A stretch of 64,000 nucleotides of DNA from Nitrospirota bacterium (GTDB taxonomy: Bacteria > Nitrospirota > Thermodesulfovibrionia > Thermodesulfovibrionales > UBA9159). Positions 33,595-41,547 of the stretch are shown here, one piece after another (positions within the stretch are counted from its first letter, which is position 1; every line of letters starts with the position of its first letter). The notes beneath the pieces are model-generated. The model saw nothing but the letters and a program-made list of their open reading frames with translations. It had not been told where the DNA came from and ran no database searches. Made by a program: the position numbers and the translations under genes. The stretch is from positions 416,001-480,000 of the forward strand of contig CAVOUE010000003.1 in assembly GCA_963699545.1 (NCBI GenBank), in the 5' to 3' direction.

Positions 33595-34786
33595 TTAAGA
33601 TGTTCCTCTCGCAGTATTCAGACGCCTCATCACTTCCATAAGGGGTATCCTGTATTTCCGTGCGATTCTCTTGCAGTCCTCGTACTCAGGGCAGACCTTG
33701 ACGGTCCCATCTCGCATCGTTGACACTTTTACCCTCACCTTTCCAAACTCCGTTTCTTGCGACTTCCCCTCACGATGCAGGACGAGTCTCGACGCCTCAT
33801 AAAATCTCAGCCCTATGGTGGTGGTCTCTCCCAATACGATATCCATGATGTCCGCCCTCTTTTCCTCGTGACACAACACGGTGAGCAGTATCCCCGGTCT
33901 GCCCTTTTTCATGATCACCTGGGTGAGAGAGACATCCAGTGCCCCGGAATCGAAAAGTCTTTCCATGACGTATTCGTACAACTGAGGGTTCATATCATCA
34001 ATATTTGTCTCGATGACCGTCACTTTGGGGAGGTGAGCCGACTCCTGCCGGGATATCTCCTCCCCGAGAAGGATCCCTCAGAACATTGGGAAATCCCTCA
34101 ATGTCCTTCTGCCCGGCGCCGTATCCTATGCGCTCCGTTGTCATCAGAGGCATATTCACGCGGCAGTCTGCCACTTCCCGCACGATTGCGGCGCCCGTAG
34201 GGGTTGTGAGCTCAAAGGGAATACCTGAAGTATGCACGGGGATACCTTTCAGCAGTTCTGCCGTGGCGGGGGCTGGCACAGGGAGTCTGCCGTGCTCTGT
34301 CGTAACAACGCCGCTTCCGAGGTTCAGTGCCGATGAATAGACCTTCTCAACTCCGAGGAGATGAAGTCCTACAAGTGTGCCGAAAACATCAACCATACAA
34401 TCCACCGCCCCGAGCTCATGGAGGTGTGCGCTGTTGAAAGCCTTGCCATGGACCTTGCCTTCGGCGGAAAAAAGCCTTTTGAAAATGCTGAGGCCTTTTT
34501 GCTTTATGTGGGAAGGTAGAGAAGAAGCCTTTATAATCTTCTCTACGTCTTTCCAGTTCCTTGCTGATCGCCGATCGCTGACCGCTGACCGCTTGATGAC
34601 GACATCAACCTTTGTAGCAGCGATGGAGCATCGTCTCACTTTTTTTGCGTGAAGCTTGTATCCTTTTACGGAAAGGGCACTGAGTCCCTGTTCGATCTCC
34701 TTGAGCGGAACGCCGGCATCCACAAGGGCTCCGAGGCACATGTCCCCACTGATCCCGGATGAGCAATCAAAATATACTATTCTCAA
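33595..34786 (-). CDS. larC: Nickel pincer cofactor biosynthesis protein (indel near 34030-34075)
   Basis: FDCSSGISGDM-LGAL, HLHELGAVD, HG-LPVPAPAT, ELTTPTGAA, ETNIDD, MKKGRPG, PEYEDC. Confidence 0.9.
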
Positions 34787-34878
34787 AATGACCTCCGTTC
34801 TCCTGTCATATAATACAAAACATAGCAGGTTTCATCCAGAGGCGGGTTTTCCACGATATAAATGTAGCAACTTATTTC

Positions 34879-34907
34879 TTGACATTTGCTAAATAAACGT
34901 GTAATAT
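34879..34907 (+). promoter_or_regulatory. sigma70 promoter at island start
   Basis: TTGACA, 17 nt, TAATAT; -35 flanked by inverted TAGCAA/TTGCTA. Confidence 0.7.
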
Positions 34908-34938
34908 TCTAACTATAATAACTTTAACTGGGAGATTT

Positions 34939-35157
34939 ATGGATCAGGAGAGCAGAAGTGAGCGATTCAAGAGGATAGCGGCGAAAAGGACGAACGATAT
35001 TCTTGAGAAAGTCAGGATACTCGGGAATTGTTCAAACAAGAGTTCTTATGAATATACAGAGGAAGAGATAAATAAGATTTTCTCTGAGATCGATAAGCAG
35101 CTTAAACTGACCAAGGCAAAGTTCTTGGGTGGGAAGAGGGAGAGGTTTAGATTGTGA
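34939..35157 (+). CDS. Small helical protein, possible regulator
   Basis: RFKRIAAKRTN...LGNCSN-SSYEY-EEEI-KIF; GGGAG SD; first gene behind the island promoter. Confidence 0.65.
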   Translation: MDQESRSERFKRIAAKRTNDILEKVRILGNCSNKSSYEYTEEEINKIFSEIDKQLKLTKAKFLGGKRERFRL

Positions 35158-35195
35158 GAGCGGCCGCAAATTGCGACCACAAATTTGGAGGATGA

Positions 35196-35717
35196 ATGAA
35201 GGCTCTAATTCCGGTTGAGATGATCGAGAGGAAAATATATTTGATACGCGGCCATAAAGTTATGTTGGATAGGGACTTAGCCGAACTATACGGAGTGGAA
35301 ACGCGTGTGTTGAATCAGGCTGTCCGCAGAAATATCGACCGATTCCCTGATGATTTCATGTTCTCATTGACCCGGGATGAGATCATGAACTTATCACAAA
35401 TTGTGATAAGTTCCCGAATCAAGCACGCTCCTAACGTCTTTGTTTTTACAGAGCAGGGAGTTGCTATGCTTTCCACTGCACTAAATAGCGAGCGAGCGAT
35501 ACAGGTGAATATTGCAATTATGAGGGCTTTTGTAAAATTAAGAGAAATTCTTTCGACACATAAAGAATTGGCTCACAAGCTGACGCAGCTTGAGAAAAAA
35601 ATAGAGAAACATGATGAGGAAATAAAACTCATTTTTGATGCTATTCGTCAGCTCATGACTCCGCCTGTTCCGAAGAAGAAAAAGATAGGATTCCACAGGG
35701 AAAAGGAAGTCGGGTAA
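35196..35717 (+). CDS. ORF6N (KilA-N-like) DNA-binding protein
   Basis: [46 protein letters not shown], KKIGF. Confidence 0.9.
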   Translation: [173 protein letters not shown]

Positions 35718-35797
35718 TGCATCTTATGAATACATATCAAGGCAGATTTCTGGCGAGGGAAGAGGTTAGATTGTGAGAGGGATAATATCTTGGTACC

Positions 35798-37207
35798 ATG
35801 AAACATAATACAAAAATGAGAAAAATTGCTTTTAACCGTATTTATGAAGGAGATGCGCGTTACCTTTCTTCAAGGTTGCCAACCAAGAGTATCATGGTTA
35901 CAATTACTTCCCCTCCATATTGGAACTTAAAAGATTATGGGGTAAAGAATCAAATTGGGTGGGGGCAAGAATACAAACAGTACTTGGATGATATTATATC
36001 TGTCTTTAAAGAAGTTTACAGAGCATCCAAAGATTCGGGATCTCTTTGGGTAGTATTGGACACTTTCAAACCCAATGGAAAAGTGAAGCTTCTTCCGTTT
36101 GAGTTCGCTGATAGACTTCAAAGCGAAATAGGGTGGCTATTACAAGATGTCATTATCTGGGACAAAGGCAAGACGTTGCCATGGTCTCGTACCGGACAAC
36201 TTAGAAATCAATTTGAATACTTGCTTTTTTTTTCCAAGACGCAGAACTTTAGGTATGAAATCGACCGGATTAAGGAAATAGATCTCAAGGAGTGGTGGGT
36301 AAAATATCCTGAGCGCTACAACCCAAAAGGTAAGGTTCCTTCGAATATTTGGTCGCTACCTATACCTGTACAAGGTAGCTGGAGTTCGAATGGGCTTCGT
36401 CACGCGTGCCCCTTCCCTACTTCGTTAGTTGAGAAGGTGATACTCCTCACTACAGATCCTGACAAACATCACGTTGTTTTCGATCCTTTTGCAGGATCAG
36501 GGATAGTATTAGCTATGGCTGAGCAAATGGAGCGAGGTTTTTTGGGTTTCGAGCTCAACTCAAGATTTGTCGAAATGTATCAAAAAGAGGTAAAGAAGAC
36601 CGTTAAGAGAGAATGGACTAAACGATCTGACCATTTGAATAGCATAGAGGATCGGCGGGCACACCTTGAAACTCAAATTAAAAAGCTGAGGGTTACAAAG
36701 TATCCCAAACTATTGGCAAGATTAGTTGGCAAGACCATGCCGAAGACATCCCCTTTTCTACGAGGAATACTGGCACTTTCTTCTGATGCTATAGTAAACC
36801 CCTCGGCGACCACGAAACATGATGCATCGCTGTTCATGAAGATATTTCTAATTACTGAAAACATTAGCAACAAGGCTACCCTGATTGAAACACTGCAGAG
36901 GATTGCATCTAAGCCGCCCCTCTCAAAGTTTGGTATTAATGCTCAAATCAGCATTGTGACATTGGATGACCTCGAGAATCTACAACCAAGTTTTGGTATC
37001 TCAGCAAATAAAAGACTTTGGCTTTACAAACACGGCAAAACATACAAGTTTAATGCGGAAACTACGTTAAAGAAATGGTTATCAAATATTCAATTTCATT
37101 GGAAGCCGTCCAAAACCAATATTACATATCCAGTAATTGCGTCAAATGTGGCTGTGTCTCAAATAATAGAGAGAACATGGTCTCCCAAGAATGCGGATGG
37201 AGAATAA
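35798..37207 (+). CDS. Beta-class N4-C/N6-A DNA methyltransferase with ~200-aa C-terminal extension
   Basis: TSPPY precedes H-CPFP and DPFAGSG. Confidence 0.9.
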   Translation: MKHNTKMRKIAFNRIYEGDARYLSSRLPTKSIMVTITSPPYWNLKDYGVKNQIGWGQEYKQYLDDIISVFKEVYRASKDSGSLWVVLDTFKPNGKVKLLPFEFADRLQSEIGWLLQDVIIWDKGKTLPWSRTGQLRNQFEYLLFFSKTQNFRYEIDRIKEIDLKEWWVKYPERYNPKGKVPSNIWSLPIPVQGSWSSNGLRHACPFPTSLVEKVILLTTDPDKHHVVFDPFAGSGIVLAMAEQMERGFLGFELNSRFVEMYQKEVKKTVKREWTKRSDHLNSIEDRRAHLETQIKKLRVTKYPKLLARLVGKTMPKTSPFLRGILALSSDAIVNPSATTKHDASLFMKIFLITENISNKATLIETLQRIASKPPLSKFGINAQISIVTLDDLENLQPSFGISANKRLWLYKHGKTYKFNAETTLKKWLSNIQFHWKPSKTNITYPVIASNVAVSQIIERTWSPKNADGE

Positions 37208-37239
37208 AGTCGATATCAAGAAGGAGAAATCCATCATTT

Positions 37240-37926
37240 ATGACAGACCGAAAATTTAGAGACAAATCTGATCTTCTGAAGCTTAGTCATTTTGATGCAA
37301 AGACTTATGAGCATTATGCTTTAACTTCTTTAACAGCCTATTGTATATACTGGTTGCAGGAATGGGGCATCACGTCTACCCTAGAAACCCTATCTGTTGC
37401 AAGTCATAGAATGTTTCCCATTAAGTTCGCTATGGTTGGCTGGCCTCAATTTCCTGATATTAATCGAACAAATAGATCAGTTCTTCAGATGCGTCCCAAA
37501 TACCGTAATTTAGCTACATCTGCCTCAGATAAGGGTGTCTTCCTAAATCAAAACGGAATACAAGAGGCAAGAGCGCTTATAGAAAAACTGGGGCCACCTA
37601 TTCTTGAGGGTGAACCACAGCAACCAATCAATCCCTCAGTAAGACGAGAGAGAGGAACTGGTAAGCCGAGCGGCGTCCACGCAGAGGACAAAGTAGAGCA
37701 GCTCCGGAAGTCGTATATTTTTGATCTCTATTTGCATTCAAGATTTGATGAGGCAGAAGCAATTGATCTGATTCAGTTGCTCAATGTCTATGATCACACG
37801 CCCTCTCGTGTGAAGAAACTGAAACTAAAGGAATATGTAGATTCTGCAAATGAGCTGAATGACAAAGAAGCATTGGATTTTCTATCAAGGATATCCGAGC
37901 GCTTCAGCAAGTATTTGAATAAATAA
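37240..37926 (+). CDS. Hypothetical protein (possible wHTH)
   Basis: AAGGAG upstream; motif HRMFPIKFAMVGWPQFPD; lies between the MTase and the ATPase. Confidence 0.65.
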   Translation: MTDRKFRDKSDLLKLSHFDAKTYEHYALTSLTAYCIYWLQEWGITSTLETLSVASHRMFPIKFAMVGWPQFPDINRTNRSVLQMRPKYRNLATSASDKGVFLNQNGIQEARALIEKLGPPILEGEPQQPINPSVRRERGTGKPSGVHAEDKVEQLRKSYIFDLYLHSRFDEAEAIDLIQLLNVYDHTPSRVKKLKLKEYVDSANELNDKEALDFLSRISERFSKYLNK

Positions 37927-37961
37927 ATGCAATTGATTCTCAAGACTGACTGGAGGATAAC

Positions 37962-40352
37962 ATGACCTCAACATTTGAATTTGAAATGAAAATGGCTAGC
38001 AGAGAATGGTTAAGACAATTCTATACGGCCGTTGTGAGAAGCATAGCAAAAACAATTACTGAGCCTGTTACCAATTCAGATACATCGTACAAACGAAAAT
38101 TGGATCTATCAGATGCATCTGGAATAGTTGACGAAGCCCTTTCCATTAAGAAAGGGACTATGTTTGATCTTTCTAACATAAAAGCCAGCCTTATGGATTC
38201 AAAACTTGAAAGAAATATCGACATTCACATTTACACAGCAAAAGGTCATGGGCGCGAGTCACGGACATGCGAAATAGTAGATTTTGCAGAGGGGTTGAGT
38301 TCAGACCAACTCAAGGATGCATTCGAAGTTTTTGCCGCAGACAAATCAACAGTTTCAAAACACAGACCTGGAAGAAGTCTCTTCGGGCGGGGTGTTAGTG
38401 ACGTTTTATTGGGTCACAAGCAAGGAACTTTTTTTAGTTATCATGACGGAATTCTTAGCGAGGCTGAATTCAGCTTTGATCCTACTAAGGACAAGGCTCC
38501 TAAAGGAAGAGTGACGGTGACAGCAAAGCCTAAGGCTTCAGATTTAAGAGAAATACACCTTCGACCAGGAGAGAATGGCTCGTGTGTTCGTTTTATGCTG
38601 CATGATGATTGTCGCATTCCTGAAGAGGGAACGATTATTCCTTATTTGGCTGAGTTCTACATGCTTCGCCTAATAAATGCAGATCCAAATATTAAGGTAA
38701 GAGTTTTCCAATATAGGAGCGGGAGAAAGATTATAGAGGATACTCTCGATTATGATTTCCCTATCGGTGATGTAATAGATAACTTTTCTCTTACAATCGA
38801 TAAGCCAGTGAAAGACGTAGCCCTTCCATCTTTAAACATTAAAGGAATAGTCTGTCGAGCAAATATTAAAGGGGGGCTTCCGGGTGGTAAAGATAGAGAG
38901 CAAAGAGCAAATGGGCTGCTAATTGTAGATGAAAAGGATGCAGTTCTTGACTTGACCTTTTTGCCTCGGTTCGAGGATGCCCCTTATCTGAAGAATATTT
39001 TTGGAATTGTCCGCATACAAAATATTCGAAATGTTTTTGACTGGTATCTTAATAACGGTAAAGATTCACCCCTCACGACGAGCAGAGACGGTTTTGATCT
39101 AAAACATGAATTCACAAAAGTGCTTTTTAAGGAACTTTCCGATCGTCTTGAGCCAATTTACAAGCGTGAAGAGGAACGCTTCAATAAGACATTTACTGAA
39201 GATATATCAAAGGAAACAAGACAACGGATCAACGACGCTATTAAGGAACTGAACAAGTACTTGAAGGATCTTATAGGCGAAGGTGAAGGAGATGGCCCTG
39301 AGCCAACCACACCTTGTATTGATCCCGATAAAGTCTTGCAGTTTGTTCCCGACAAGATAAAGCTTACACTCGGGCGCCCTCGTCCTATTAGGCTATTCCT
39401 AAAAAAGGATACCGCGAAACTCAGTGGTGGTATTATCTGTGATGCAAACAATGAAAAAATTGAAATCTCACCTCTTTCCCACCAAATTTCCGATGGTCGG
39501 AAAGAAGGCGCTTATTTAGTATATGTGCTAACGCTCAAATGTGACTCTTTACACGAAAACGCTGTGATTACGGCTCTTGCTGACGGACAAAAAGAGACCA
39601 TTGAAGCAACCCTCGAAGTGGTAGATGTGACATCAGGTGCTAATATCAGCTCCCCAGATGAAATGGAGTTCAGACCCGCAGAGTCAAGCGGCCGCCCAAA
39701 TCGCAATAATTACATCGCCCTTTACATAAATGATAAAGTGATCCCATTGGGAAGGAAGATAAAAATGGAGTTAGAAAAAACTCATGGGGCAATAGGACTT
39801 TGGGAGAATGAGAAAAGAGCCGATGAGCTATCAATAACATTCGAAAAGAAACACATCATTTCTGGTACCAATATAGGGCGTATATTGGTACCTTGGCGAG
39901 GAACGGGCTGGGGACAATCAGCGCGAATTACGGCGAAAACAAAAAAACCGGATGGCAATACAGTATACGCAACAGGGAAAATACTTCTTGAACAGCCGGA
40001 AGAGGAAGGCGGAATTATAAAAGACGTTAAATATCGACCTCTTGAGAATGACATGTGCTCCCATATAGTGGATGGGATTATTTATATCAACAGTAATCAC
40101 TATCTCAATAAGGTCGTGTTTGGCCCCGATGAGAAATCATATGCCCAGAAAATCGATAATGATCGAACAGCACAATATAGATTTTCTGCCGTGGTGGTCG
40201 AGCAAGGTGTTTTTAGACTTGCGGAGCAAAGCTATTTTGATGATGCATTGCAAATAAATCCAGAGGCCCCGGTCACTAGTTTGCGGGAGTTTATTGATAA
40301 GCAAACAAATGTCGCTGCACCCAAGATAATTAAAGCGTTTATGACCAAATGA
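37962..40352 (+). CDS. Large GHKL (MORC/Hsp90-like) ATPase
   Basis: Bergerat boxes EPVTNSD, DFAEG and RSLFGRG; later SRDGF and a C-terminal IYINSNH motif; GGAGG SD. Confidence 0.75.
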   Translation: MTSTFEFEMKMASREWLRQFYTAVVRSIAKTITEPVTNSDTSYKRKLDLSDASGIVDEALSIKKGTMFDLSNIKASLMDSKLERNIDIHIYTAKGHGRESRTCEIVDFAEGLSSDQLKDAFEVFAADKSTVSKHRPGRSLFGRGVSDVLLGHKQGTFFSYHDGILSEAEFSFDPTKDKAPKGRVTVTAKPKASDLREIHLRPGENGSCVRFMLHDDCRIPEEGTIIPYLAEFYMLRLINADPNIKVRVFQYRSGRKIIEDTLDYDFPIGDVIDNFSLTIDKPVKDVALPSLNIKGIVCRANIKGGLPGGKDREQRANGLLIVDEKDAVLDLTFLPRFEDAPYLKNIFGIVRIQNIRNVFDWYLNNGKDSPLTTSRDGFDLKHEFTKVLFKELSDRLEPIYKREEERFNKTFTEDISKETRQRINDAIKELNKYLKDLIGEGEGDGPEPTTPCIDPDKVLQFVPDKIKLTLGRPRPIRLFLKKDTAKLSGGIICDANNEKIEISPLSHQISDGRKEGAYLVYVLTLKCDSLHENAVITALADGQKETIEATLEVVDVTSGANISSPDEMEFRPAESSGRPNRNNYIALYINDKVIPLGRKIKMELEKTHGAIGLWENEKRADELSITFEKKHIISGTNIGRILVPWRGTGWGQSARITAKTKKPDGNTVYATGKILLEQPEEEGGIIKDVKYRPLENDMCSHIVDGIIYINSNHYLNKVVFGPDEKSYAQKIDNDRTAQYRFSAVVVEQGVFRLAEQSYFDDALQINPEAPVTSLREFIDKQTNVAAPKIIKAFMTK

Positions 40353-40422
40353 AAGACATCCTAGAGAAAGTCGACTCCATCAAATCCCTTCTTGACGGTG
40401 AGGACTTAAAAGGAATTTAACG

Positions 40423-41462
40423 ATGTTCAAGCCGAATTTCAGATATACGAATAAAATTGTGAAGGATCTGACACAGATATCTGCTGCGAGAGAACTCATC
40501 CTGAATGCCCCTTTTATCCCTAAGTGGGAAGTGGCCATTCGTCGAGAAGCAATTATACGGAGTGCTCATTCTTCTACAGCAATCGAAGGGAACAGGTTAT
40601 CTCTTGAGCAGGTAAGTGATCTAGCCCAGGGACGCGAAGTAATGGCAACACGCAAGGATAAGCAGGAGGTCCTAAATTATCTGCATGTGCTTGAAACTAT
40701 CGGGAAATTGGCCGCTGATGGAACAATTACAGAGAAAACTATTCTCAAAATCCACAAAATCTTAACCCGGGATACGTTAGAGAATCCTTCTGATTGCGGC
40801 GCATACCGCAGACGTTATGTTGTGATCGGAAACAGACTAACAGGAGAAGTTATTTTCAGACCGCCTTCAAACGAAGATGTCCCGAAATTAATGGGGGGGC
40901 GCTGGTTGTATGGCTGAATTCCTCTGAGGCACAGGCCCTTGACCCTATCATTGAGGCCGGCGTAGCTCACTATGAATTTGTAAGAATACATCCTTTTATA
41001 GATGGAAACGGAAGAACGGCCCGTGCTCTGTCAACGTTGATACTTTATCTTCGAGGCTTTGACGCAAAGCAATTTTTCTGTCTTGACGACTATTATGACA
41101 CAGACAGGCCGACATACTACCGGGTTTTACAGAGTGTGGATCAGAAGACCCTCGACCTGACCGGATGGCTTGAGTACTTTGTCGAAGGCGTCACAGTGAG
41201 CATCGCTGCTGTGAAGGAGAGTGTTATCCGCCTCAGCAGCGAAAGGCTGAGAAGAACGAAGAAAGGCCAGATAGCCCTCACCGAGAGGCAGATGAAGATT
41301 TTGGAAAGGATAATCCAGGATAGTAAGATAACTGTTGGCGAGGTTGCTGAGATGTTCGGGATAACCAGGCAGGCAGCACTGAAAGAAATAAACAAATTGG
41401 TAAGCATGAAAGTTGTTCTGCTGAAAGGAAAAGGCAGAGGGGCAAATTATGTGCTTGCATGA
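40423..41462 (+). CDS. Fic-family protein with C-terminal wHTH (frameshift in G7 run near 40895)
   Basis: HPFIDGNGRTAR catalytic motif and N-terminal STAIEGN inhibitory motif. Confidence 0.9.
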
Positions 41463-41466
41463 AAAT

Positions 41467-41502
41467 GGTTGTCATTTAGGTTGTCATTTCGGTTGTCGTT
41501 TC
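41467..41502. repeat. Three 12-bp tandem repeats
   Basis: GGTTGTCATTTA GGTTGTCATTTC GGTTGTCGTTTC. Confidence 0.85.
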
Positions 41503-41547
41503 TTCGCGGTGGAAGCTTTGCTTATAGGTTGATTATCAGCAATAAGA

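Follow-up and report, generated by a model that had tools for sequence, protein, structure and literature searches.

A three-gene module on a low-GC island

The window analyzed here is a stretch of 64,000 nucleotides from a Nitrospirota bacterium (contig CAVOUE010000003.1), of which positions 34,787-41,502 are shown; all coordinates are those of the whole stretch. Between larC and ccsA/resB, the window carries six co-oriented open reading frames (ORFs), all on the + strand (Table 1). Their core is a three-gene module on a horizontally acquired island, encoding a DNA methyltransferase (MTase), a winged-helix (WH) protein and an ATPase of the GHKL superfamily. The observed module is real, well beyond chance. 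Its function is tentatively proposed to resemble restriction-modification (R-M), with the MTase marking self and the other two proteins acting on unmarked DNA.

The island has a GC content of 0.417, compared with 0.521 and 0.516 in the 10-kb flanks. In a genome of the same family (G012), larC lies only ~180 bp from ccsA and the island is missing; the 6.8-kb stretch is therefore an insertion. Among 31 related genomes, the ATPase gene was found in one, the window's own.

Table 1. Features of the island and its flanks (positions in the 64,000-nucleotide window).
Feature	Position	Strand	Description or basis
larC	33595-34786	-	flanking gene (PF01969)
Low-GC island between larC and ccsA	34820-41545	.	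GC contrast and empty site in G012
Promoter-like TTGACA-17-TAATAT before small leader gene	34879-34907	+	consensus scan, 10/12 matches
Small leader gene, 72 aa	34939-35157	+	tblastn homologues
ORF6N, 173 aa	35196-35717	+	PF10543, E 2.7e-32; PADLOC PDC-S05, E 6e-58; phrog_4792 anti-repressor
MTase, 469 aa	35798-37207	+	PF01555, SPPY, DPFAGSG
WH protein, 228 aa	37240-37926	+	winged helix ~19-125, disordered linker ~120-147, helical C-terminal domain
ATPase, 796 aa	37962-40352	+	GHKL and S5 transducer 1-440, Ig-like 457-559 and 566-681, C-terminal beta/helical region 688-796
Fic and winged helix-turn-helix gene, SoFic-like	40423-40917 (164 aa) and 40794-41462 (222 aa)	+	two overlapping frames
Terminator-like hairpin of ccsA	41569-41546	-	sequence scan
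ccsA/resB	from 41616	-	flanking gene (PF01578, PF05140)

The MTase is assigned by its sequence to the beta class of N6/N4 DNA methyltransferases. Residues 34-262 match PF01555 (E 9e-41), and the catalytic motifs are present at residues 38 (SPPY) and 229 (DPFAGSG). The SPPY motif is typical of N4-cytosine enzymes. In PADLOC, the protein matched generic MTase_II models only (E 3e-47). The C-terminal tail (~270-469, ~200 residues) matched no family; it is conserved across the window and five aligned relatives and contains the motifs KPPLSKYG and RTWxP.

The second core gene encodes a winged-helix DNA-binding protein. Its start is backed by an AAGGAGA Shine-Dalgarno sequence and by the homologues, most of which are 222-245 aa long; the three core genes all have a Shine-Dalgarno-like GGAG ahead of their starts. 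The protein has a basic, invariant recognition helix and wing (R76, R79, Q83, K87, Y88, R89 and N90). No match to the protein was found in Pfam, NCBIfam or PHROGs, and searches of PDB sequence profiles with it and the ATPase gave nothing below E 0.2. Its 133 homologues are all named "hypothetical protein", and many lie on the same contigs as homologues of the ATPase. The most enzyme-like residues (Y88, H186 and D208) are lost in distant homologues. Two other identities were considered and set aside. A topoisomerase-like catalytic tyrosine was ruled out by the loss of Y88 in those homologues, and a PADLOC match to PtuB (E 0.0099), obtained with a 283-aa ORF that contains the WH gene, was dismissed as chance.

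Membership of the ATPase in the GHKL superfamily is weak by sequence and firm by structure model and motifs. Its match to PF13589 (HATPase_c_3) lies below threshold (E 0.0016; 18.9 bits against a cut-off of 25 bits), and a few of its homologues carry a precomputed PF13589 match. In the structure model (pLDDT 83.6, pTM 0.70), the GHKL fold leads into an S5-like transducer domain. Motif I (ExxxNxxD) is present, with E34, T37 and N38 invariant and D40 nearly so in 26 sequences. The glycine-rich motifs of the ATP lid in GHKL proteins are of the DxGxG and GxxGxG types. Their counterparts here are invariant in the same 26 sequences, down to 30% identity: D107 and G111 (as DxAEG), and R138-S-L-F-G142-R-G144. 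Because the protein is built like MORC, SMCHD1, MutL and TopoVI-B, it is expected to dimerize on ATP and close around DNA. Conserved residues in its C-terminal region are Y691, Y708, N710, R740 and D779.

The ATPase matched no family in PADLOC, NCBIfam or PHROGs and none in Pfam above threshold, and its 84 homologues are all named "hypothetical protein". The wider family comprises 906 representatives at E <=1e-3 and 248 at E <=1e-30. Thirteen representatives of the family were examined. Five carry a fused C-terminal Sigma70_r4 and Bac_DnaA_C helix-turn-helix instead of a WH protein, and none carries a nuclease fusion. One of the thirteen, the distant relative P0237 (943 aa), ends in a DSP-PTPase phosphatase domain (residues 785-912; PF22785, E 3.8e-20). 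Phosphatase domains of this kind occur in polymorphic toxin and conflict systems. Longer fused forms (1394-3980 aa) were looked for and none was found, which is weak evidence.

Much of this description had been anticipated in an earlier note made from the sequence alone. The AT-rich, co-oriented island between larC and ccsA agrees with the ORF positions, GC content and flanking families. The SPPY beta-class MTase with ~200 extra C-terminal residues is supported by PF01555 and the position of SPPY, and the spacing of ~30-35 nt between core genes by gaps of 32 nt (MTase to WH gene) and 35 nt (WH gene to ATPase gene). The 228-aa "unknown" protein has the size and place given but is no longer unknown, as it carries a winged-helix domain. 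The 796-aa GHKL ATPase with beta-rich C-terminal regions is upheld by structure and motifs, its sequence match alone being weak.

Conservation of the module

The three genes were followed across genomes and metagenomes. Eighteen loci came from a scan in which each species was represented by one genome, and a metagenome scan gave 80 more; together with the window they number 99 and fall into 78 groups at >=95% nucleotide identity. The genome loci are from Ignavibacteria, Melioribacter, Syntrophobacteraceae, Acidobacteriota, Verrucomicrobiota, Planctomycetota and Nitrospirota, and the module is spread over at least six phyla of uncultured bacteria. The WH gene lies directly upstream of the ATPase gene in 18/18 genome loci and, among the pooled loci, in 80 of the 83 whose upstream sequence reaches 750 bp or more. 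The three misses are a start-estimate artefact (L008) and two ATPase fragments (L063 and L107).

The MTase is linked to this pair as consistently, although its gene is displaced from locus to locus. A relative of the window MTase was found beside the pair in 16/18 genome loci; one exception has two MTase fragments, identified by clustering (L018), and the contig of the other (L017) is 1,999 bp long and stops within the ATPase gene. Linkage was counted where a locus has 2.3 kb or more upstream and 1.3 kb or more downstream. An N6_N4 MTase is present in 42/42 such loci, or 32/32 after dereplication at 95% nucleotide identity. The long MTase with a tail, upstream and on the same strand as in the window, forms a single clade and accounts for 12 of the 32. 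In the others the MTase is short and lies downstream on the same strand (9/32), downstream and convergent (9/32) or upstream (2/32). Long-form MTases are 42-75% identical to that of the window, and short ones ~22-34% (most ~22-28%, over the catalytic domain). The module MTases form two subfamilies, and their motif IV is either SPPY or DPPF, depending on the locus. Overlaps of 3-21 nt between stop and start codons or between 3' ends are frequent. Since the MTase has been replaced repeatedly while the linkage stays, the pair seems to need DNA methylation as such, which argues that the link is to methylation and not to one particular MTase gene.

The distribution of the module is patchy and linked to mobile DNA. 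Integrase or recombinase genes are present in the flanks of 8/32 loci. Searches of 72,556 plasmids, 50,697 phages and the viral contigs of IMG/VR gave no homologue of the ATPase. A minimal locus (L007) consists of the WH gene, the ATPase gene and a convergent MTase gene, with one upstream PIN ORF, between gyrB and gcvP. A profile of a distant ATPase subfamily, which also detects the main family, matched in 9/401 Acidobacteriota genomes. The earlier claim that the core genes form a real unit was thus confirmed by both the pairing and the linkage counts, and the co-occurrence across genomes that was proposed as its check proved to be wide.

Proposed function

The reading that we favor, at a probability of about 45%, is an R-M-like module. 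The beta-class MTase would mark the host's own DNA. The WH protein would bind DNA and work with the GHKL ATPase, which would dimerize on ATP binding and close around the DNA. Together the pair would act on DNA without the mark of the MTase, clamping it and blocking replication or expression. In some relatives, the pair may hand the DNA to an adjacent nuclease, either a restriction endonuclease (REase) of the BamHI/BglII type or a PIN protein; some lineages would have such a nuclease as an optional extra. Since a conserved nuclease is lacking, the effect that the loci most likely share is ATP-driven clamping. The clamp would block replication or expression, an outcome that has been proposed for the nuclease-free BREX and shown for eukaryotic MORC. 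The earlier note had suggested methylation-based discrimination of self and non-self with a DNA-clamping ATPase, and this stays the best reading in light of the constant pairing and linkage. A role in defense would suit the setting of the module in the window, whose neighboring genes match PADLOC PDC-S05 and SoFic.

A stricter version would dispense with cutting altogether. The WH protein would load the GHKL clamp on unmarked DNA, and ATP-driven dimerization would trap or compact it, so that the module would silence DNA under the control of methylation as a bacterial counterpart of compaction by MORC and SMCHD1, with REase and PIN genes being optional. We consider this version unlikely.

Several observations weigh against the proposed R-M-like function. 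No nuclease, helicase or other effector domain is recognizable in the three core proteins of the window. In the C-terminal half of the ATPase, E569 and D779 are the sole near-invariant acidic residues, and there is no conserved histidine. Residues 688-796 of the ATPase and 285-469 of the MTase match nothing, although these regions were not folded or searched as separate folds. The six of 32 loci that contain an ordinary REase (see below) fit an accessory role as well as a restriction role. The co-occurrence counts are conditional on the ATPase having been found first. Finally, nine loci were fetched from the distant Acidobacteriota branch of the ATPase family. The WH gene is upstream in 4/9, and no MTase was found near the ATPase in any of the nine, either by blastp or by Pfam searches of 44 neighboring genes. 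The WH-ATPase pair can therefore exist without methylation. Thus, the WH-GHKL pair is an ancient unit, and coupling to an MTase defines the main branch, which includes the window. PIN or MazE genes and transposases recur around the distant-branch loci.

It is from constant co-occurrence that we infer a complex that would read methylation. Complex prediction for ATPase residues 440-796 and the MTase tail, with the WH protein as partner, gave a score of 0.11 (mark 0.32) and decides neither way.

Nucleases and the accessory role

The effector step is where the alternatives to the R-M-like reading diverge. Profile searches for PD-(D/E)xK, HNH, PLD and helicase families gave no match in any of the six genes, and no REase gene lies beside the window MTase, as a cognate REase would in a Type II system. 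Across the family, a BamHI/BglII-family REase lies next to the module MTase in 6/32 dereplicated full loci (10/78 overall). Examples are REases of the BamHI family in L010 and L014 (PF02923, E 2.6e-55 and 9.4e-44) and of the BglII family in L012 (PF09195, E 2.7e-31). A PIN gene is present in 12/75 related loci. The absence of a visible nuclease, noted earlier, therefore holds for the window module but not for its family.

A nuclease could be hidden in the last 110 residues of the ATPase, in the helical domain of the WH protein or in the MTase tail, which would make the module a classical DNA-cutting variant of R-M. The regions of the ATPase and MTase in question hold conserved motifs despite matching nothing. 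There are also precedents, as MutL, paraMORC3/VcSduA and Tiamat carry a C-terminal nuclease on a GHKL protein (PMC2292703; PMC12137116; 10.64898/2026.09.30.754977). The evidence from the window proteins points the other way. The ATPase offers just the two acidic residues named above, and the enzyme-like residues of the WH protein are not kept in distant homologues. Because the MTase tail is limited to the long-MTase clade, it cannot be the universal effector. By hhalign, the tail was compared with profiles of BamHI, BglII and families c4, c5 and c8, with probabilities of <=0.3% (0.1% for BamHI and BglII); c4 and c8 compared with each other also gave <=0.3%. In the ESM Atlas, ATPase residues 684-796 and MTase residues 285-469 matched only clusters without a name (0.91-0.92) and, at the level of chance, nucleotidyltransferase clusters (0.79-0.80). 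A hidden nuclease is accordingly regarded as very unlikely. The earlier suggestions of a cryptic nuclease fail both for the tail, which is found in too few loci and resembles neither REase, and for the "unknown" ORF, which encodes the winged-helix protein.

The linked REases raise another explanation, in which the WH-ATPase pair is an accessory of Type II R-M. In the manner of MutL and MutH, the pair would sense or loop DNA and activate an REase encoded adjacent to it or elsewhere in the genome. MutL is the activator of MutH, a relation that PMC2292703 also discusses. Besides the six loci with a linked REase, the window's own genome (87% complete) encodes a BglII-family REase (PF09195, E 1.4e-45) ~58 kb away, and this REase has no MTase beside it. 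The solitary REase gene forms an operon with, and overlaps by 4 nt, a gene for a DpnI-family methyl-dependent REase (PF06044, E 7e-66). The two genes lie on the - strand at G000:C3:514456-515885 (L137 5456-6885), and their neighbors are an SpoU rRNA methylase and an alpha/beta hydrolase. Unlinked BglII-family REases were found in 4/10 other module genomes without a linked REase, or in 5/11 when the window's genome is included. The background is 25/401 Acidobacteriota genomes and 2/30 relatives; among the positives, G084 is an unpublished genome and the REase of G031 is module-linked. The comparison of 5/11 with a background of 26/430 gives a one-sided Fisher p of 4e-4, a value that overstates the case owing to the kinship of the genomes.

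Other findings fit an accessory role poorly. REases of these families are not linked to 26 of the 32 loci, and the bare three-gene module of L007, with its PIN ORF, stands between housekeeping genes. The BamHI family was found in 0/11 module genomes without a linked REase, and related genomes are not independent samples. Three of the four BglII REases found unlinked in other genomes each have an MTase of their own, which makes them independent R-M systems. The solitary REase of the window's genome matches the module-linked REases at E ~1e-4 only, and the window MTase is ~25-28% identical to BglII-linked MTases. As a partner of the solitary REase, the window MTase was considered and not adopted, given that it has no specific similarity to BglII-linked MTases or REases, and this pairing is a lead only. 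The pattern of unlinked REases thus keeps the accessory role alive as a lead without establishing it, and we regard that role as doubtful. As a separate observation, one Acidobacteriota contig (G205:C1) holds six identical 325-aa frames with a BglII-family domain (95.9 bits each), which suggests a multi-copy mobile element carrying an REase-fold gene.

Leader cassettes and neighboring genes

Genes upstream of the module vary between loci. The co-oriented upstream chain was surveyed in 75 dereplicated loci. The leader genes found were homologues of the small 72-aa gene of the window (12/75), PIN genes (12/75, with a MazE-like gene in 8), a 205-aa family named c5 (9/75), a 381-aa family named c7 (7/75), family c18 with a weak Rok-type winged-helix match (4/75) and a second GHKL ATPase of the HATPase_c_3 type (2/75; E 5e-14 in L036 and 2e-18 in L096). 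In these last two loci, the second GHKL gene (L036 3550-5265, L096 1790-3334) lies directly upstream of the WH gene in a module with a divergent long MTase, giving two GHKL ATPases per module. The 72-aa gene is a recurrent and optional member of these interchangeable cassettes. By tblastn, it has homologues upstream of the module in L004, L005, L016 and L017. Its PHROGs match is phrog_35258 (E 0.0011), and no match was found in Pfam, PADLOC or NCBIfam. Promoter-like sites are no more numerous in the region than in shuffled sequence, so the site before this gene is a lead only.

The PIN leaders bear on a further explanation, namely a conflict module of the abortive-infection or toxin-antitoxin type that acts independently of methylation. 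It would have a variable output such as PIN, with the MTase as a frequent passenger or regulator. MazE-like and PIN genes (VapBC-type) lie directly upstream of the module in L001-L003, L007, L030, L035, L037, L039, L049, L052, L058 and L068, which belong to several clades, and in some loci the pair overlaps the start of the MTase gene. PIN or MazE genes also lie by the MTase-less distant branch in L131, L133, L134 and L129 (opposite strand in the last); in L131, with MazE, and in L133, the PIN gene is directly upstream of the WH gene. The interchangeable leaders and the phosphatase fusion of one distant relative would also suit a variable output. A passenger MTase is hard to reconcile with an MTase in every main-family locus, its non-orthologous replacement and the overlaps suggestive of translational coupling. 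Pairs of the VapBC type are so common and mobile that some would lie next to the module in any case, and the window itself has no PIN gene. We find a methylation-independent conflict module quite unlikely.

ORF6N and Fic are neighbors of the module and not part of its core, and their inclusion in the system by the earlier note is not supported. ORF6N occurs near the pair in 1/18 genome loci (L009). In the window it is bracketed by an imperfect ~45-nt direct repeat, with one copy at 35112-35160, in the 3' end of the small gene, and the other at 35738-35779. Because of this repeat, and because the small gene abuts the MTase directly in L004 and L005, ORF6N is taken as a later insertion between the two genes; the repeat resembles the trace that a single-gene cassette would leave on entering an operon. 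The Fic gene has no homologue by tblastn in the 18 genome loci. Fic-domain genes do occur close to the module in L078 (this one clusters with the window Fic), in L003 and L044 (RhuM and Fic) and in L130 of the distant branch. The window Fic matches the PADLOC SoFic model in two pieces, at model positions 42-166 (E 3.7e-18) and 168-350 (E 2.2e-39), which lie in different frames and not in one full-length frame. The frames are separated by an apparent one-base frameshift at a run of seven G (40893-40899), which is either real or an assembly error. The single public DNA run (share 0.08) yielded short contigs of a ~93-98% identical relative, without cover at this run.

On the other side of the island, larC is divided between two ORFs that overlap and differ in frame, one at 33998-34786 (model positions 1-231) and one at 33595-34023 (246-375), whereas both parts are in a single frame in G012. 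Possible causes of the split are a frameshift, a fault in the assembly or a programmed shift of the kind found in larC1/larC2 of Lactobacillus.

This setting also bears on whether the module serves defense at all. It could instead be an epigenetic or chromosome-handling module, involved in regulation, repair or island maintenance, that stands near defense genes by chance. Such a role would agree with the lack of any known defense model matching the pair, the absence of homologues from the plasmids, phages and viral contigs searched, and the location of some loci between housekeeping genes, as in L007. It agrees poorly with the patchy spread of the module, both among the 31 relatives and in the Acidobacteriota genomes with the wider ATPase family. 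The low GC content and insertion relative to G012, the integrases and transposases nearby, and neighbors that include REases, toxin-antitoxin pairs, SoFic and PDC-S05 also speak against it. A non-defense role is therefore highly improbable in our judgment.

Comparison with known systems

In plants and animals, transposons and viruses are silenced by GHKL ATPases of the MORC type, whose origin in bacterial R-M was predicted in 2008. The experimentally tested bacterial GHKL defense proteins that were found, Tiamat and VcSduA, both carry their own nuclease. The module described here is small, and in it an MTase is joined by a GHKL clamp and its own DNA-binding adaptor, with no nuclease or helicase. 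If the proposed function is correct, the module would offer a simple setting in which to study how DNA methylation is read by a MORC-like clamp and whether foreign DNA can be restricted by clamping alone. It would further bring in a family that is missed by current defense-finder models (PADLOC v2). If the pair is only an accessory of BamHI/BglII-type R-M, it would still be a new kind of R-M helper. In the open-access literature searched, no description was found of a three-gene system composed of MTase, winged-helix and GHKL proteins. The comparison with PADLOC proposed in the earlier note gave no full match, with no model for the ATPase or the WH protein. Among PADLOC-DB v2 systems with an MTase and/or GHKL component (BREX, DISARM, Mza, Hma, Tiamat, Shedu and others), no signature protein was matched.

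The module shares features with several of these systems. Like the Type II R-M systems of BamHI and BglII, it has a beta-class N6_N4 MTase, has an REase beside the MTase in a minority of loci and shows the convergent and overlapping layouts typical of R-M. Unlike them, it lacks such an REase in the window and in 26/32 loci and has two extra conserved proteins, neither of which is required by a classical Type II system. BREX is described as a methylation-based phage exclusion system without a known nuclease (PMC9122589). It shares with the module MTase-marked self DNA, an ATPase machinery and the lack of a recognizable nuclease, and so offers a model for restriction without cutting (PMC9122589). 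Unlike BREX, the module has three genes instead of six and an MTase of another class, and no BREX protein was found here (none by PADLOC for the WH protein and ATPase). MutL-MutH and topoisomerase VI (a GHKL B subunit and a winged-helix A subunit) are also comparable, but no evidence of MutS, MutH, Toprim or a catalytic tyrosine was found here.

The GHKL defense proteins VcSduA (PMC12137116) and Tiamat (10.64898/2026.09.30.754977) have been validated experimentally against phage. Tiamat and VcSduA (paraMORC3/Shedu type I-D) have an N-terminal GHKL ATPase predicted to dimerize as a clamp, as the ATPase of the window may also do. Each is a single protein with a C-terminal PD-(D/E)xK nuclease (DUF3883 or DUF4263). 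The window ATPase, in contrast, has Ig-like domains and a helical end with no such match, and its WH and MTase partners are encoded by separate genes.

The closest likeness is to MORC and paraMORC. A function in R-M operons was predicted for these GHKL ATPases (Iyer, Abhiman and Aravind, 2008; PMC2292703). In that study, an SFII helicase is present in ~70% of MORC neighborhoods, and most of the methylases are of the cytosine-C5 kind, with Vsr (PMC2292703). Similar to MORC and paraMORC1-5, the module combines a GHKL and S5 ATPase with DNA methylases, and sometimes REases, in mobile and patchy loci, and the role proposed for those proteins is methylation-linked looping or clamping of DNA (PMC2292703). 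The second HATPase_c_3-type GHKL gene of L036 and L096 recalls the pairing of MORC with paraMORC1 described there (PMC2292703). Unlike MORC, the module has no helicase beside it in the neighbors scanned, its MTases are beta-class N6/N4 enzymes and its separate WH partner is obligatory. It may correspond to paraMORC1, described as a helicase-less context that sometimes has a second MORC gene (PMC2292703); the domain architecture and the MTase context without a helicase would fit. The effector step aside, the best reading of the module is as a fresh variation on the MORC/paraMORC theme in R-M.

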